This document shows, piece by piece, positions 476-56,436 of a stretch of DNA of 64,000 nt. The stretch spans positions 1,436-65,435 of the IMG/VR virus record IMGVR_UViG_3300005201_000711; one strand, 5' to 3'. A program made the position numbers and the translations under genes. The first letter of the stretch is position 1; each line of letters begins with the position of its first letter. Below the pieces are notes generated by a model, which ran no database searches, was not told the origin of the DNA, and worked only from the letters and a program-made list of their open reading frames with translations. Source of the DNA: a virus. Taxonomy: Duplodnaviria; Caudoviricetes.

Positions 476-880
476 TTAAGCGGCTGCTCCGTCAGCCTGT
501 AACTCCTCAAGCCTTTCCCGGATCTCATTTATCCGGTTCCGGCACAAGTCCCTCCGCGCATGGAGGGCTGGATCAAGTTCGGACAGGACATTGCCGACCT
601 CGGATGCCTTAATTACCTTATAATCCTTGCTGTCAAGCTCGGCCTGCAAGCGGGCTTCTTCTCGGTTCAAGGCTTCGATTTCCTGCCGCTTTGCAGCCAC
701 GTCAGCCGGTTCACCCAGGACAATATCTCCCGAAGCGTCAATATGCGCGGTGCTGCCAGCCGCCTCCCATTCCGCTTCCTCTACCGTCAATTCAGGCGTT
801 TGTATGCCGTCTAAATCCGACATCGCCTGTAGATCGGTATGGTGGATTACTTCACCATTCTTCTTTGCCAGATACACCAT
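476..880 (-). CDS. Probable tail-fibre assembly/chaperone protein
   Basis: SD GAGGAGG then ATG at 880; C-terminal L..KDYKVIK..E..R...R..INE pattern typical of small genes following phage fibre genes; position. Confidence 0.5.
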   Translation of the reverse strand: MVYLAKKNGEVIHHTDLQAMSDLDGIQTPELTVEEAEWEAAGSTAHIDASGDIVLGEPADVAAKRQEIEALNREEARLQAELDSKDYKVIKASEVGNVLSELDPALHARRDLCRNRINEIRERLEELQADGAAA

Positions 881-891
881 GATCTGCCTCC

Positions 892-2025
892 TCAATGTGT
901 TCTTATGTACAAGCCATTATAAAGCTTGTCCATGTATCGGATCCGGTGATACGCTTGAAAGCGCCTCCGGTAATTCCCTCTCCATGACTGATACGATATC
1001 CATAAATCGTTATAATCCATCCTTCCGTTGATTATAAGGGGTCTGTACTTTATCAGTTTACGGCGCATACGTTTTGTGGATTCCTTTCCGGGAAGTCGCA
1101 GAACCTTACCGGAGGGAAGCAATTTATATTTTCCTTTTAGAAACTCTATCCCATGATCCAGCTTTTCAATGCGTGTTTTTTTCATGTTAATGGTTATCTT
1201 AAGTTTGGTACATATTTTCTGTATCTCATCCAGACAGTGCTTAAGATAGTCCTTGCTTTCGTGTATCAAATACAAATCATCCATGTAACGGCCATAGTAT
1301 TTTATCCGTAACTTCTCCTTTATAAAATGGTCAAGCCGGTTTGGAAAATAAATAGCGGAAATCTGCGATACCTGGCTTCCAAGCCCAAGAGATTTCCCAT
1401 CCCCGAAAACAGAAACAAAGTTTTTTGTTAAATCCAGTACACGCTTATCGGTTATATCCCTTTCAAACATTTTGAATAATAGTTCATGGTCTATGCTATC
1501 AAAAAACTTTGAAAAATCTATTGCAAGAAAGTAACCTTTATTTGATTTTCCATTATGCCTATAAAACTTTGAAAGATGCGTAATAAACCTTCGTATTGAA
1601 AAATGAACGCCTTTTCCTTTTACGCTTGCGCCATTATCATAGATCAATCCATTAGAGAGTATAGGGACAAGCACTTGATCGCAGAGGCACTTCTGTACAA
1701 TTCGTTCTGAAATATGAATAGATTTTATGTGCCGTATTTTTCCGCGTTCATGTAATGTAAATTCTACAAAACCATGCTGGATATTTTCTCCGGCAAGTAA
1801 GCGCCTATGCGTTTCTATGATATTTCTTAGCTCATTTGCTTCATACCGCTGAACTGATTCTTTCCAAGCAACACCTTTCTTTGACTTTTGAAACGCAGTA
1901 TTCAAATTATCAATATCAGCAATACGTTCAAAGCTGTCATATTGAGAAAGTTTATTCTGTCTTTTTGCGGTTCGTTCAGCAACTCTCCGCTGGTAACGCG
2001 CTTCGCGTCTTTCTGCACTGGTCAT
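892..2025 (-). CDS. DGR reverse transcriptase
   Basis: RT motifs AIDFSKFFDSIDH, LGLGSQVSQ (DGR-type SQ motif), YYGRYMDD; basic C-terminus; likely start ATG 2025 (MTSAERR) after GGAG; adjacent to TR and avd. Confidence 0.95.
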   Translation of the reverse strand: MTSAERREARYQRRVAERTAKRQNKLSQYDSFERIADIDNLNTAFQKSKKGVAWKESVQRYEANELRNIIETHRRLLAGENIQHGFVEFTLHERGKIRHIKSIHISERIVQKCLCDQVLVPILSNGLIYDNGASVKGKGVHFSIRRFITHLSKFYRHNGKSNKGYFLAIDFSKFFDSIDHELLFKMFERDITDKRVLDLTKNFVSVFGDGKSLGLGSQVSQISAIYFPNRLDHFIKEKLRIKYYGRYMDDLYLIHESKDYLKHCLDEIQKICTKLKITINMKKTRIEKLDHGIEFLKGKYKLLPSGKVLRLPGKESTKRMRRKLIKYRPLIINGRMDYNDLWISYQSWRGNYRRRFQAYHRIRYMDKLYNGLYIRTH

Positions 2026-2283
2026 ATATAACTCCAAAAATAAAAAACGCCTTGTATGGCATACGTTGAATGATAGATAAAATATCTCACTTTCAACGTT
2101 TTGCGTAGTATGCCACATAATGTTAACAGGTATGAAAGCGCCTAACGCAGTCCGGCACTCATGCAAGAAGCGTCCACCTGAACATATCAAGGCTAATATT
2201 CGTGGGCAAGCCCACAGGACAATATCTCCTTCTGTGTTGGATACATCGGTCAAAAAGACCTACCGTGTTGTATCTCACGGAAT
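2026..2283 (-). ncRNA. DGR RNA spacer between TR and RT, including IMH*
   Basis: Non-coding interval between TR and RT start; sequence after TR (ATTCCGTGAG) differs from that after the VRs (CTTTCTGTGT); small stem 2263-2280. Confidence 0.6.
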
Positions 2284-2373
2284 CGGGGGCGCAGCCACCC
2301 ACAGAACTCGCGTTGTTATTGTTGCTGTTGCCATTGTTGTTGACATTACAGAAGTTGGAAGACGACCCGGAAT
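2284..2373 (-). repeat. DGR template repeat (TR)
   Basis: 90 bp, in-register reading SGSSSNFCNVNNNGNSNNNNASSVGGCAP with 10 AAY codons; matches two VRs with mismatches only at A. Confidence 0.95.
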
Positions 2374-2892
2374 TTAGATATTGCCCTTATTTTCCTCTAT
2401 AACTCCCTCCCCACTTTTCTGGCGCTTTTCAATGAGAGCCAATATCTTACTATTTGCCTTGCGCCATCCCTTGAGCAATGATATTTCATATTCAATCTGC
2501 TCAATATACGGAACGAACTTTGAAACTTTTACAGGAAGCACGTCCTGACAGTAAAGAATTTCCTGTAGAAGTTGTTCACAATTTATTATAGCAGCAGTCT
2601 GATAATGCCGCCGCGTCTGTAATTCATCCTTACTTACTGGATAAATGGTATTCCCAGCTGTAATGTTCATTACAAGATTACGGAGTAGGTTACGAATATT
2701 CCTGGAAAAGTCGGAAATCAGTTCATCATAAAAACCTTCCGGCTGCTGGGATCCAGTATCAGCCTTGAACTGTGCACCACGGCTATGTATCCCAAAGTCC
2801 CGGAGAACGAGCATAGTTAATTCTCTCCTCATTTTTCGTGCGTTATGATAAAACTCAAGCTTTGAGAGCCCTCGTTTTTTCTTCAGAACCAT
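2374..2892 (-). CDS. avd: DGR accessory variability determinant (Avd-like four-helix-bundle protein)
   Basis: MVLKKKRGLSKLEFY... and EI.LLKGWRK motifs typical of Avd; lies between target gene and TR; its TAA abuts the TR. Confidence 0.85.
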   Translation of the reverse strand: MVLKKKRGLSKLEFYHNARKMRRELTMLVLRDFGIHSRGAQFKADTGSQQPEGFYDELISDFSRNIRNLLRNLVMNITAGNTIYPVSKDELQTRRHYQTAAIINCEQLLQEILYCQDVLPVKVSKFVPYIEQIEYEISLLKGWRKANSKILALIEKRQKSGEGVIEENKGNI

Positions 2893-2994
2893 TACCGGAA
2901 CACCCCAAAACTCAAAATTTTTCCGAGCCGCTTCGCGGCTACTTCGGCTGTAGGCTCGCTCCGCTCGCCACTTTTGAAGTATATCAGCCGTAAC

Positions 2995-3045
2995 CCCTCC
3001 CCACAAGGGGGAGGGATTCAAGATTATCCGTGTGCTAAAGCACAC
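2995..3045 (-). promoter_or_regulatory. Double-hairpin target-recognition cassette downstream of VR1
   Basis: GTGTGC-TAAA-GCACAC (3030-3045) and CCCTCCCC-ACAAG-GGGGAGGG (2995-3015), given on + strand. Confidence 0.7.
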
Positions 3046-4066
3046 AGAAAGCGGGGGCGCAGCCACCCACAGAACTCGCGGTGTAACTGCTGCTGTTGCC
3101 ATTGCCGCTGACACTACAGAAGTCGGAAGACGACCCGGAATGAGCCGTTGCTAAGAAGTACCAATCGCGTGATCCGTTCCACCTCTTTATCCGATACACA
3201 TAACTTTTCTGGTATATCGGATAATGTAAATTGGTGTTCCATGCAGTTAGCTCATCCCCATAGGTCTGATTCCCAAACAATTCAATTTCTGTCGGAAGCC
3301 ACACGGTGTAGTTATCCCAGGAAGAACTACCTTTATGGACATGGCCTTTTCTAATCGTATAAAGATAATCCCCGCCCAAGGCAGCTTTTAAGCCGGTTGC
3401 AAAAACGCCACTTCCATCTCCGCTCGCACCTTCAAGCCACACTCTCATTTCACTTGATTTATATCCTCCGGCATTGGTATCTGTCGGATTCATACGTCCT
3501 CTGGCTATGGAATTGCGGGTTGTGATCAAAAGGCTGTTTTTGTTTTTTTCCGTGTCTCCTACTCCTTTATAAGGATTCATACCGGAAAGAATGAGGCGAT
3601 TATTTTTATAGGCGTTGCTCCACGCCTGTGGAGCGCTCCCGCCTGTTGGTGCAGCGATAGCGCTTAGATCGAGACCATCCAGATAATCTCCAACTTGCAA
3701 CCCCTTTATATCAGGTATTCCGCTACCGTCTATTTCCCCATTGTTGTTCATCCTTATTCGGATTTTTGCCATTGATTCTGCAATAGCCTCACTTATTAAC
3801 GCTGGGGTGGTCATTTCCTCAAACCCATGACCAAGCAAGATTTTCATTAAATCGCGTCCATAGCCTTCTACCATGTCAGCACCAAGAGAAACAGAACCTG
3901 CCTCCAATTTGCCCATACCAGCACGGAGAAACACGGTTCTGTCCGCGAGTTGTTTCGCTTGTAAATTAGAGATACCTGCCGGAAGCGGCCCACCCCTAAC
4001 ATCATCGTTTTCTTCTATCTGGTAGATACCCTCCTGCCAGAGCAAGTCTTCAGGTAAATTTGCCAT
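3035..4066 (-). CDS. Tail fibre / receptor-binding protein, DGR target 1 (C-terminal CLec-type domain)
   Basis: N-terminus MANLPE..WQEGIYQIE..D.V.GG..GISN.QAKQLA.RT typical of tail fibres; C-terminal WLPTE.E.FG...FC.V..G....A....G..PAFC contains VR1. Confidence 0.9.
   Translation of the reverse strand: MANLPEDLLWQEGIYQIEENDDVRGGPLPAGISNLQAKQLADRTVFLRAGMGKLEAGSVSLGADMVEGYGRDLMKILLGHGFEEMTTPALISEAIAESMAKIRIRMNNNGEIDGSGIPDIKGLQVGDYLDGLDLSAIAAPTGGSAPQAWSNAYKNNRLILSGMNPYKGVGDTEKNKNSLLITTRNSIARGRMNPTDTNAGGYKSSEMRVWLEGASGDGSGVFATGLKAALGGDYLYTIRKGHVHKGSSSWDNYTVWLPTEIELFGNQTYGDELTAWNTNLHYPIYQKSYVYRIKRWNGSRDWYFLATAHSGSSSDFCSVSGNGNSSSYTASSVGGCAPAFCVL
3052..3141 (-). repeat. DGR variable repeat VR1
   Basis: 81/90 identical to TR; all 9 differences at TR adenines. 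Confidence 0.95.
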
Positions 4067-4078
4067 GATAAACCTCCA

Positions 4079-4534
4079 TTAAAAATAAATCGTCCATGTC
4101 CCCTCAAGGGAAATGTCGCTTTGCTTGTTAATTGGTGTAGCTCTTGTCCTGCGGCAAAATAAATTACCGTTGGCTGTCAGCATACCCATTTCCATAATTG
4201 CTAATCCGTTTGCTTCCGAGGTGGTAAGGTTCCACGCGAAGGTTACTTGTCCAACAGCCGGATAAGTAACTGCTCCCAGATTTTTTGTGAACGGATTCTG
4301 AATTTCCGTATCATCAACAGTCGGATTACTACCATTCGTGCCAAATGAAATTGCTTGCATTGACCGATTCGCTACATCACCCGCTATAAGGTGAGCCATG
4401 TTAGTTCGCGCAAGATCGACAATCAAATTATCGTATTCAAAAGTTTCAATGAGTTTTCGCTCATCTCCTTCACCTTTGTAGACGTTTCCTTTGAGAACAC
4501 CACGCAGACTAACCTTTTCTTTTAACTCTACCAT
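4079..4534 (-). CDS. Baseplate/tail-fibre attachment protein
   Basis: Position between wedge and fibre; NLIV..R..A.LIAG and EAN G..I.E.G motifs of tail-collar-type proteins. Confidence 0.55.
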   Translation of the reverse strand: MVELKEKVSLRGVLKGNVYKGEGDERKLIETFEYDNLIVDLARTNMAHLIAGDVANRSMQAISFGTNGSNPTVDDTEIQNPFTKNLGAVTYPAVGQVTFAWNLTTSEANGLAIMEMGMLTANGNLFCRRTRATPINKQSDISLEGTWTIYF

Positions 4535-54860: not shown

Positions 54861-55471
54861 TACTTTTCCCCTTTTGGAAATTGCGTAATATTACCGGCAA
54901 CGATATTAAACTCATCGTCATTGCCGTCATCGTCTTCGTCATCGAACAGGGATTGGTCAGGGCTGGTACTATGTTCATCTCCGTCTTCAAAGGGAAGCTC
55001 CCCCTGTTCCCTCGCGCCATTGGCATAAAGCTCAATCTCTTCCCGGAGATGGATTATTTTTTCTACAAGGGAGTTTTGCTGTTCAATTCTTGTTTGATAG
55101 CTTATGTCTGTAGAAGTTGCGTCATCAGCACGGAGAGGAAGCCTGTCAGTTTTCAGGATATGCTTTACATAGACATTTTCTTTTGTTCTGATTGTAAGCT
55201 CAAGCACAAAACCGTCTGGGCCGTTCTCCGGGTAGCTGAAAGTTATTTGACGAAACTGCGCTGTAATACCCTCGAACCTAAAGAATTTTAGCGCCGATAC
55301 AACAACACCAGAAACAGCGTTCAGTAAATTTCCTGTCGGCCTATCATTGGTCTGGATCCTTTGTTTTTCGGTATTGGTTTCAAAGGTAACATTATATGTG
55401 TATTCTCCACCAACCTTAAACTGTAAAATAATCATGCTAAATAACTCCCGCCTCTTTGAGTTGTTCCTCAA
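54860..55471 (-). CDS. Hypothetical protein with acidic tail
   Basis: Coupled ORF. Confidence 0.5.
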   Translation of the reverse strand: MRNNSKRRELFSMIILQFKVGGEYTYNVTFETNTEKQRIQTNDRPTGNLLNAVSGVVVSALKFFRFEGITAQFRQITFSYPENGPDGFVLELTIRTKENVYVKHILKTDRLPLRADDATSTDISYQTRIEQQNSLVEKIIHLREEIELYANGAREQGELPFEDGDEHSTSPDQSLFDDEDDDGNDDEFNIVAGNITQFPKGEK

Positions 55472-55811
55472 GGCTTTCTATAGAATTGACGACAATCCCA
55501 ATGCCACCGTTCCGGTTCACGCAGTCCAAGAACTCTTTTTGGGGCTTGGATAGCCTACCGCCTACTGGTCTCTTGCACTCAATCCAGATAGATATTCCGT
55601 TAGGCCCGATAGCACAAAAATCGGACATACCTTTTACCCCAAAGCGCACAAGGCGACCGTGGCTGTCTTTAAGACCTCCGCTGTTCATTCGCCAGTGAGG
55701 TATCTGGTGTATTGCAAGCCATTCCGAAACCATACGGTTTACAGGATTTTCCTTTACCATCCGTAATGGGTTTTTAGATTTGCGTTTTCGACCGTAGGCC
55801 ATCCCAAGCAT
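55437..55811 (-). CDS. VRR-NUC nuclease
   Basis: G.SD......IECK...G.LS..QKEFL......GG...V. Confidence 0.8.
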   Translation of the reverse strand: MLGMAYGRKRKSKNPLRMVKENPVNRMVSEWLAIHQIPHWRMNSGGLKDSHGRLVRFGVKGMSDFCAIGPNGISIWIECKRPVGGRLSKPQKEFLDCVNRNGGIGIVVNSIESLEEQLKEAGVI

Positions 55812-55823
55812 TCTCCTGTTCCT

Positions 55824-55877
55824 TCTCTCCACGCGGGAGAGAGAATTTAGATTATTCGTGTCGGTTAGCACCGACAC
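55824..55877 (-). promoter_or_regulatory. Double-hairpin target-recognition cassette downstream of VR2
   Basis: GTGTCGGT-TAGC-ACCGACAC (55858-55877) and TCTCTCC-ACGCG-GGAGAGA (55824-55842), given on + strand. Confidence 0.65.
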
Positions 55878-56436
55878 AGAAAGCGGGGGCGCAGCCACCC
55901 ACAGAACTCGCGCCGCCATCGTAGCTGTGGCCATCGAGGCTGACAATACAGAAGTCGGAAGACGACCCGGAATAGCGAGGCTTAAGCCAATACCACCAGC
56001 TCACGCCGTTGTAATTTTTCACTCCCTGATTTTCTTCGGGCAGGAAAACACGGATGCTTTCTCCGATAACAGATACCATGTCAGCATTACGTGCCGCGCT
56101 GTGAAAGGCTTCTTTAACTTCTTCACTTGCCAGATATTCAGATAACAGATCGCGGTCTGTGCCGTTGTCTGTATCCCTCGCGGAATGAATGAGAATATCC
56201 TTGCTGTAGTAATTCCCATCCCCCTTGAGTTCAAATACACCACGGGTCTTCTGCTTGTTAAAATGCAAGCCTCCGATATCCGCTTCCGGCCATTCAATAT
56301 CAAGCTCGATAACCTTTTCCCGGCCAGAACATTCTCCAGTACAAGCAGAGGTACTCTTGCCCTCCAGCTTGTCAATCCGTTTCTTGAGGTCTGATAATTC
56401 AGCCTCTACTTTTTCGCACCATTCCCTGTCTTTCAT
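55852..56436 (-). CDS. Remote DGR target 2: coiled coil plus truncated CLec-type variable domain
   Basis: C-terminus WYWL.....SGSSSDFC.VS..G.S....ASSVGGCAPAFCV; contains VR2. Confidence 0.88.
   Translation of the reverse strand: MKDREWCEKVEAELSDLKKRIDKLEGKSTSACTGECSGREKVIELDIEWPEADIGGLHFNKQKTRGVFELKGDGNYYSKDILIHSARDTDNGTDRDLLSEYLASEEVKEAFHSAARNADMVSVIGESIRVFLPEENQGVKNYNGVSWWYWLKPRYSGSSSDFCIVSLDGHSYDGGASSVGGCAPAFCVGANRHE
55884..55973 (-). repeat. DGR variable repeat VR2
   Basis: 77/90 identical to TR; all 13 differences at TR adenines. Confidence 0.93.

Follow-up and report, generated by a model that had tools for sequence, protein, structure and literature searches.

The locus

The window analysed here, 64 kb out of the 65.4 kb provirus record IMGVR_UViG_3300005201_000711 (Caudoviricetes), encodes a complete diversity-generating retroelement (DGR) on its minus strand: a reverse transcriptase (RT), the accessory protein Avd, a template repeat (TR), a tail-fibre target gene and a second target gene that lies ~53 kb distant from the DGR cassette. 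Targets of the two types, named after their variable repeats (VR1 and VR2), have a homologous C-terminal DUF6273-like domain in common. The subject of this work is the sequence directly behind both VRs, where the initiation of mutagenic homing (IMH) element is followed by two hairpins. Of the 22 TR adenines in the 76 nt ahead of the GC-rich core of the IMH, 9 are changed in VR1 and 13 in VR2, and neither VR has a change at any of the 54 other positions. Because the differences fall at adenines only, VR1 and VR2 are both written DGR targets.

Read on the coding (minus) strand, both VR ends display the same order of elements: IMH core, IMH tail, hairpin 1, an A/T-rich spacer of 14-15 nt that contains AATC, and hairpin 2 (Table 1). 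The original prediction, made from the letters of the window, had described a shared IMH, hairpin 1 (6 bp at VR1, 8 bp at VR2, 4-nt loop), a similar spacer and hairpin 2 (8 versus 7 bp, 5-nt loop) at these positions, and all of it stands, with TTTA and GCTA as the loops of hairpin 1. Its description of hairpin 2 as a purine/pyrimidine hairpin holds for the four loop-proximal C:G pairs only; elsewhere the stem arms are mixed. Measured from the IMH tail, hairpin 1 begins at an offset of 0 nt and hairpin 2 at ~26-31 nt. Hairpin 1 overlaps the IMH, since the last 4-7 nt of the IMH tail serve as its 5' arm. With extension its stem measures 9-11 bp. In hairpin 1 the IMH bases TCTGTGT lie opposite ACACGGA, which nearly duplicates the primer RNA. 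Target 1 has its stop codon (TAG, 3035-3037) across the loop and 3' arm of hairpin 1, and target 2 is translated across hairpin 1 to a TAA at 55852-55854 inside the spacer. At VR2, hairpin 2 ends 9 nt ahead of a Shine-Dalgarno-like AGGAG and 22 nt ahead of the ATG of a VRR-NUC gene. Folding of the 76-nt tails as single-stranded DNA gives the two hairpins as both the minimum-energy and the centroid structure at both VRs; the z-scores reach -5.2 and -4.4, and 200 shuffles yield no fold as good. Perfect stems of at least 7 bp with 3-6 nt loops number 41 in the window, ~0.64 per kb.

Table 1. Elements of the two target tails and parts of the DGR in the window
Feature	Position	Strand	Description
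IMH core VR1	3052-3064	-	GC-rich, GGCTGCGCCCCCG, common to TR and VR2
IMH core VR2	55884-55896	-	GC-rich, GGCTGCGCCCCCG
IMH tail VR1	3042-3051	-	CTTTCTGTGT, VR-specific; complementary to spacer RNA (Sp) primer strand 2228-2237
IMH tail VR2	55874-55883	-	CTTTCTGTGT
Hairpin 1 VR1	3030-3045	-	GTGTGC-TTTA-GCACAC, 6 bp; extends to 3027-3048 with one T.G pair
Hairpin 1 VR2	55858-55877	-	GTGTCGGT-GCTA-ACCGACAC, 8 bp; within target 2 coding sequence
Spacer VR1	3016-3029	-	GGATAATCTTGAAT
Spacer VR2	55843-55857	-	GAATAATCTAAATTC; contains target 2 stop TAA
Hairpin 2 VR1	2995-3015	-	CCCTCCCC-CTTGT-GGGGAGGG, 8 bp; extendable to 2992-3018
Hairpin 2 VR2	55824-55842	-	TCTCTCC-CGCGT-GGAGAGA, 7 bp, loop CGCGT
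Target gene 1	3035-4066	-	Tail fibre, C-terminal DUF6273/C-type-lectin-like domain; VR1 ~3052-3141
Target gene 2	55852-56436	-	194 aa, DUF6273-like C-terminus; VR2 ~55884-55973
DGR reverse transcriptase	892-2253	-	
Avd accessory gene	2374-2868	-	phrog_3206, Avd protein of DGR
Template repeat (TR)	~2274-2373	-	IMH* GATTCCGTGAG at 2274-2284; no hairpin 2 behind TR
DGR spacer RNA (Sp)	2027-2277	-	Rfam RF03077, RT-2 RNA, 99 bits

Conservation and covariation of the tails

Public collections were searched with the IMH alone, which kept the downstream sequence out of the selection. After chance matches were discarded, 61 distinct VR-like ends remained, almost all of them from termite-gut metagenomes and from genomes of termite-gut Spirochaetia, Treponema and Termitinemataceae. 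The compact module of spacer and two hairpins is present in 44 of the 61, and several others have it with insertions. Mismatches in 16 VR/TR pairs from this family fall at 172 of 345 TR adenines as against 9 of 871 other positions, and this concentration at adenines identifies the module-bearing VRs as real DGR targets.

In an alignment of the 44 compact tails, 88.6% of stem cells are paired, compared with 35-60% after displacement of the partners by 1-3 columns, and the observed covariation is reached by none of 500 shuffles. Hairpin 2 is 94.5% paired, with changes on both sides at six of its seven pairs, and at least 15 different stems occur, all of them paired. Three inner pairs of hairpin 1 covary; its outer pairs are fixed because they are part of the IMH. 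Wobble pairs in hairpin 1, read on the coding strand, comprise 12 G.T and 1 A.C. The divergence of the stems with retention of pairing had been put forward as a sign of selection on structure, and the covariance alignment proposed as a check agrees: these sequence comparisons support the view that the two-hairpin module is under selection for structure.

Loops and spacer are conserved as well. The loop of hairpin 2 is CTTGT in 26 of the 44 family members, those of hairpin 1 are mostly GTA, GGA, GATA, GGTA or GTAA (GNA/GNNA-type), and the spacer follows the consensus G[GA]A[CT]AATC[CT] in most sequences, with AATC retained in distant DGRs. The intergenic sequence past hairpin 2 has diverged beyond alignment, and the genes behind the module vary (avd, the VRR-NUC nuclease and others). 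Both hairpins are present at 20 of 20 VRs that have avd as the next gene, and the Avd and VRR-NUC proteins of module-bearing phages are only 60-83% identical. A hairpin-2-like motif, defined as a stem of at least 6 bp with a C[CT][TC]GT loop and counted on both strands of 772 kb (the window plus related loci), occurs 40 times within 120 nt past an IMH and twice elsewhere.

Some loci depart from the common layout. In five VR1-type loci (L043, L037, L060, L050, L042) avd starts ~555-606 nt past the IMH rather than ~185 nt, and an extra ~400-nt segment or small gene separates the tail from it. Five spirochaete contigs (L081, L075, L087, L113, L071) have an identical IMH and neither hairpin; a search of five incomplete spirochaete genomes for the TR of module-less VR ends returned spurious 2-mismatch matches only. 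A degenerate IMH pattern (TGCGCNCCNGCNTTCTGTG) added chance matches only in viral contigs, and a search for related loci from the RT protein alone yielded no confirmed relative. RT and TR were sought in four related viral records and found in none; for the relative of 61.6 kb, judging by the place of its VR2-type gene, the DGR end of the genome would fall beyond the record. No public sequencing run was listed for the VR2 region.

Hairpin 2 in distant DGRs

A second search, with the core of hairpin 2 and the AATC spacer and no IMH required, found more than 117 viral loci. About 70 of the 105 distinct matches are VR ends of other DGRs, in which the AATC spacer and hairpin 2 stand behind another IMH (GGCGTTCGCCCCGCTTTC and relatives) and hairpin 1 is absent. 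An RT homologue 29-54% identical to the window RT starts 750-1100 nt downstream on the same strand in 72 of the hairpin-2 loci; these are DGR cassettes. As a control for bias, the search was re-anchored on the second IMH, giving 55 distinct ends. Approximately 30 of these have a hairpin of the hairpin-2 type 13-25 nt past the IMH, with stems that differ and are always paired and with loops of CTTGT (23), CTCGT (3) or TTTAT (3).

The two IMH-anchored sets together hold 73 distinct copies of hairpin 2 and 511 stem cells, of which 498 are Watson-Crick, 4 are G.T and 1 is A.C. Stem positions 5 and 7 from the loop each occur as four pair types, and positions 1-4 and 6 are almost fixed as C:G.

That many distant DGRs carry hairpin 2 alone makes it a widespread, old element, and these comparisons point to hairpin 2 and the AATC spacer as the ancestral, clade-wide hairpin downstream of the VR. 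Hairpin 1, by the same comparisons, looks like a lineage-specific addition in phages of termite spirochaetes; it is present in one relative (L183) with 54% RT identity and, weakly formed, in Roseburia phage Shimadzu, with 46%. The earlier view of hairpin 2 as an addition to the known single hairpin is thereby reversed. Comparison of the gut-clade sequence TGTATCGGT-TAATC with TGTGTCGGT-GATA-ACCGACAC-GAATAATC in the termite-spirochaete lineage suggests that hairpin 1 may have originated as an inverted duplication of the last codons. The gut-clade loci gave no match to the Rfam RT-2 RNA at the gathering score, and one gut-clade VR tail gave no BLAST match in the phage collection.

CTTGT hairpins are also seen apart from VRs. 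GC-rich viral contigs without VR-like sequence upstream contain hairpins of the type ACCTCCCC-CTTGT-GGGGAGGT, with stems of 8-9 bp and often a second hairpin after them (L126, L128, L134, L136, L140, L142, L175, L177, L202, L210), and C4-CTTGT-G4 hairpins are present in other contexts in some unrelated GC-rich phages.

The primer strand and the IMH

The spacer RNA (Sp) offers a partner for the IMH tail. In ~25 related DGRs, a long Sp stem covaries around a fixed inner hairpin (N5/N5', GATAC/GTATC in the window), and the inner hairpin is followed by an invariant ACACAGAAGGAG, which is probably the primer strand with the priming adenosine. An invariant Sp segment, ACACAGAAGG (2228-2237, minus strand), is likely the primer strand of the template:primer duplex. 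Opposite the IMH tail CTTTCTGTGT it forms 10 of 10 possible pairs, a single one being G.T, and the energy of the duplex is -14.6 kcal/mol with the IMH versus -5.6 with IMH*. Recomputation for phage BPP-1 gives -16.7 with the IMH versus -8.6 with IMH*. In BPP-1, cDNA priming takes place at Sp A56, inside the duplex of Sp 47-56 with the IMH* region. Naorem et al. 2017 noted stronger pairing of the primer RNA with the IMH than with IMH* and suggested that directionality rests on this difference (PMC5703328); the energy asymmetry in the window family supports that model independently.

Downstream of the TR the arrangement is different. The 25 TRs of the family are followed by the conserved Sp/RT-2 RNA and not by a spacer and hairpin 2. 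A search with Rfam 15 found no match at 2990-3050, and the sole real match within 800-4200 is the RT-2 RNA at 2027-2277.

Comparison with known targets

The best-studied VR hairpin is that of the BPP-1 mtd gene. Efficient homing requires a GC-rich hairpin past the IMH (Guo et al. 2011, PMC3240598); its stem acts via pairing and composition and its loop via size and sequence, and cruciform extrusion is possible (PMC3240598). In E. coli, deletion of the BPP-1 hairpin cripples homing, and editing is best when the strand complementary to the cDNA is the lagging-strand template; the authors suggest that the stem-loop prolongs the open state (PMC12875486). The published consensus is a single inverted repeat with a GRNA tetraloop or GRA triloop, and in a survey only 34% of DGRs had inverted repeats called with confidence, and terminators were few.

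The window tails resemble the BPP-1 target in several respects. The module directly follows the IMH in VRs that are diversified and does not occur past the TR, its stem sequences vary with pairing kept and its loop is conserved, a stop codon lies in or beside a hairpin (in BPP-1, a TAG just ahead of the stem), and the Sp primer strand is a closer match to the IMH than to IMH*. By analogy, the tail would also be portable, an IMH and a hairpin being enough to make a target. The features that define targets of the BPP-1 type are found here too, namely a VR altered at adenines only and a GC-rich inverted repeat of 7-10 bp that varies with pairing kept and is missing behind the TR; the GRNA 4-nt loop is not, since hairpin 2 has CTTGT and the window hairpin 1 loops TTTA and GCTA misfit, although hairpin 1 loops across the family are close to the GRNA consensus. 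Unlike BPP-1, with one hairpin and a 4-nt GAAA loop, the window tails have two hairpins 14-15 nt apart, of which hairpin 1 overlaps the IMH tail and hairpin 2, the clade-wide one, combines a 5-nt loop of CTTGT with a C-tract in its 5' arm.

A cultured relative is provided by Roseburia phage Shimadzu (LR596903.1; annotated tail fibre, Avd and RT), in which the Avd gene likewise lies behind the tail. In its VR tail, a weak GTAA-loop hairpin that includes the stop codon is followed by an A/T-rich spacer with AATC at its end; behind the spacer lies an 8-bp hairpin whose loop is CTCGT. It differs from the window tails in its IMH sequence, in the imperfect first hairpin (5 pairs plus a mismatch) and in its Firmicute gut host. 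No published analysis of the Shimadzu VR tail was found in the literature. Nanoarchaeal DGRs have GRA-triloop hairpins inside the target genes (Paul et al. 2015, PMC4372165), and hairpin 1 resembles these in its G-N-A loop and in its place in the coding end, where it lies wholly at VR2 and by way of the stop codon at VR1. The nanoarchaeal hairpins are single, with no second CTTGT hairpin described (PMC4372165). Group IIC introns, as reported in PMC3240598 from Robart et al. 2007, are a more distant parallel, in that a retroelement reads a DNA stem-loop by shape and not by stem sequence. In that account their targets are true U-tract terminators in which loop sequence is unimportant, whereas the window tails have no T-run and a conserved loop.

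Possible functions of the tail

The IMH, spacer and two hairpins together probably form a cis-acting target tail that marks a VR as the recipient of mutagenised cDNA. We infer this role, and the mechanism outlined below, from the observed anatomy, conservation and covariation of the tails, their restriction to VR ends and the diversification of those VRs. By analogy, hairpin 2, with its 7-10 bp stem, near-fixed loop-proximal C:G pairs and 5-nt loop of the CTTGT type, is most likely this clade's equivalent of the BPP-1 homing hairpin or cruciform. The near absence of G.T pairs (4 of 511) makes it a better fit to a DNA structure, perhaps on both strands, than to an RNA one, and its fixed C-tract and loop point to a sequence-specific reader.

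In the proposed mechanism, the IMH would be read through base pairing with RNA-linked cDNA. Once the coding strand becomes single-stranded, for example as lagging-strand template, the hairpins would extrude and delay re-annealing or replication. Hairpin 2, and in the window hairpin 1 as well, would act as DNA structures, leaving the coding strand open to access or making replication pause, after which the RNA-linked cDNA could anneal to the VR. To pair with CTTTCTGTGT, the Sp primer strand ACACAGAAGG would have to displace the 3' arm of hairpin 1.

Several points weigh against this proposal. The family members are related, and cell counts consequently overstate the number of independent events, a concern tempered by the 15 or more different paired stems. 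About 11 of the 61 VR-like ends with an identical IMH have no hairpin 2, which means that the module is not obligatory, and in some of these ends its place is taken by a single long GC-rich hairpin, its loop GAAA or similar, plus a T-run, a tail that is BPP-1-like or terminator-like. The 5-nt CTTGT loop departs from the published 4-nt GRNA consensus. Hairpin 1 sequesters IMH bases meant for the primer RNA and could hinder homing as easily as help it. Finally, given the extended -10-like element described below, the tail at VR1-type loci may have a role in avd-TR-RT transcription.

A related possibility, tentative but not far-fetched, is that hairpin 2 serves as a sequence-specific docking site for the RT-Avd-RNA particle or a host factor, a distinct class of address for a large clade of phage DGRs, to which the termite-spirochaete lineage has added hairpin 1 as a gate. 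The tail of the IMH would be held in the stem of hairpin 1, whose 3' arm ACACGGA mimics the primer RNA ACACAGAAGG, and homing would begin when the RNA primer invades hairpin 1 by toehold-type strand exchange. If true, such a two-key choice of target, by docking and by base pairing, would be transplantable to any gene.

The target-tail reading must also be weighed against explanations that do not involve homing. The tail could act at the RNA level, as a stem-loop that stabilises the 3' end, a site of processing or a leaky terminator separating expression of the target from that of later genes. Hairpin 2 does sit just past the target stop codons, the stems are GC-rich, the wobble pairs of hairpin 1 lean to G.T on the coding strand, and at VR1-type loci the conserved extended -10-like TGATATACT (2978-2986, minus strand) could mark a unit boundary. 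These observations are balanced by the lack of a T/U run past hairpin 2 on the coding strand, where the terminator scan makes no call, and by the next gene's ribosome-binding site only 2-20 nt past the stem at VR2-type and gut-clade loci. A general stabiliser would moreover be expected behind other genes too, but hairpin-2-like motifs keep to IMH-bearing VRs by 40 to 2, G.U is nearly missing from the hairpin 2 stems, and no Rfam family matches. An RNA-level role is accordingly unlikely.

A DNA site of another kind is rather improbable as well. Hairpin 2 could be an operator-like site for a sequence-specific regulator of the DGR or a neighbouring gene, and not a DNA-opening structure; stem positions 1-4 and 6 are near-fixed as C:G in one orientation and the CTTGT loop is kept, which exceeds what pairing needs, and the AATC spacer is also conserved. 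The variable stem positions nevertheless always change on both sides, so that pairing is selected, and the site travels with VRs across unrelated gene contexts, remote second targets included, and is not tied to one promoter. This explanation overlaps with the target-tail reading if the binding protein belongs to the homing machinery. That the tail has no function at all is very hard to credit. It would then be a 3' flank carried along in the duplication or exchange of the C-terminal variable domain, its similarity reflecting common descent, as might be suspected from the homologous DUF6273-like domains of VR1- and VR2-type targets and from the resemblance of hairpin 1 to an inverted duplication of the last codons (GTGTCGGT and ACCGACAC compared with gut-clade TGTATCGGT). 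Yet the module survives in phages with only 60-83% identity in their Avd and VRR-NUC proteins, although the flank past hairpin 2 no longer aligns; its many different stems remain fully paired, and the hairpin persists to an RT identity of ~30%.

Other identities were considered and rejected. An intrinsic terminator is excluded by the scan, silent at both hairpins on the minus strand, by the lack of a T-run behind either of them and by the sequences that follow hairpin 2 (GTTACGG and onward at one VR, AGGAACAGG and onward at the other), a generic dispersed (REP-like) repeat by the distribution of copies over the 772 kb, and an integron attC site by the lack of a GTTRRRY core. H-DNA and G-quadruplex structures do not fit arms that are inverted and not mirror repeats, with two G-runs only. 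The spacer is a poor match to the IHF site WATCAANNNNTTR, the loop TTG cannot be a -35 box because gut-clade hairpins abut the avd ribosome-binding site and leave no room for a promoter, and the idea that the hairpin-2 loop is complementary to the Sp RNA fails for want of a conserved ACAAG.

Neighbouring elements and genes

At VR1 the extended -10-like TGATATACT lies ~8 nt past hairpin 2 and is kept as a TGnTAnnAT-like sequence in most VR1-type relatives, with a conserved GGCGAGCGG stretch after it. Together these may supply the promoter and leader for transcription of avd-TR-RT. At VR2, a gene for a VRR-NUC/Holliday-junction-resolvase-like nuclease (55437-55817, minus strand) begins 22 nt past hairpin 2, and the pairing of a VR2-type target with VRR-NUC is seen again in at least nine related phages. 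Such nucleases are cruciform cutters, and it is conceivable that VRR-NUC is functionally tied to the hairpins, but the arrangement may be mere synteny.

Implications

A hairpin behind the VR and DGRs with multiple or remote targets are already established (PMC3240598, PMC5758913, PMC10743442), and the present finding, real, conserved and well defined, falls conceptually inside the known hairpin requirement. The original prediction also proposed that the two-hairpin tail is a portable address that lets this DGR serve a distant gene. The covarying pairs, the confinement to VR ends and the recurrence of the same module ahead of different genes are what would be expected of a portable address, but service to a distant gene is not new, because remote and multiple targets that share an IMH and hairpin are known (PMC5758913, PMC10743442). 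No description of the CTTGT-loop hairpin class, the AATC spacer or a two-hairpin tail with its first stem overlapping the IMH was found in the literature searched.

How the cDNA finds and enters the VR is the least understood step of DGR activity and limits the use of DGRs as programmable tools for in vivo mutagenesis, and the experimentally defined cis-elements stem from one phage only, BPP-1. To these the tails described here add a hairpin type, the second to be well defined, whose loop and spacer are conserved and which is common to well over a hundred phage DGR targets, including those of a cultured Roseburia phage. They also provide a naturally occurring form with two hairpins, the first of which has a stem that overlaps IMH bases thought to pair with the primer RNA. 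The CTTGT hairpin type may explain DGR targets that have been scored as hairpin-less.

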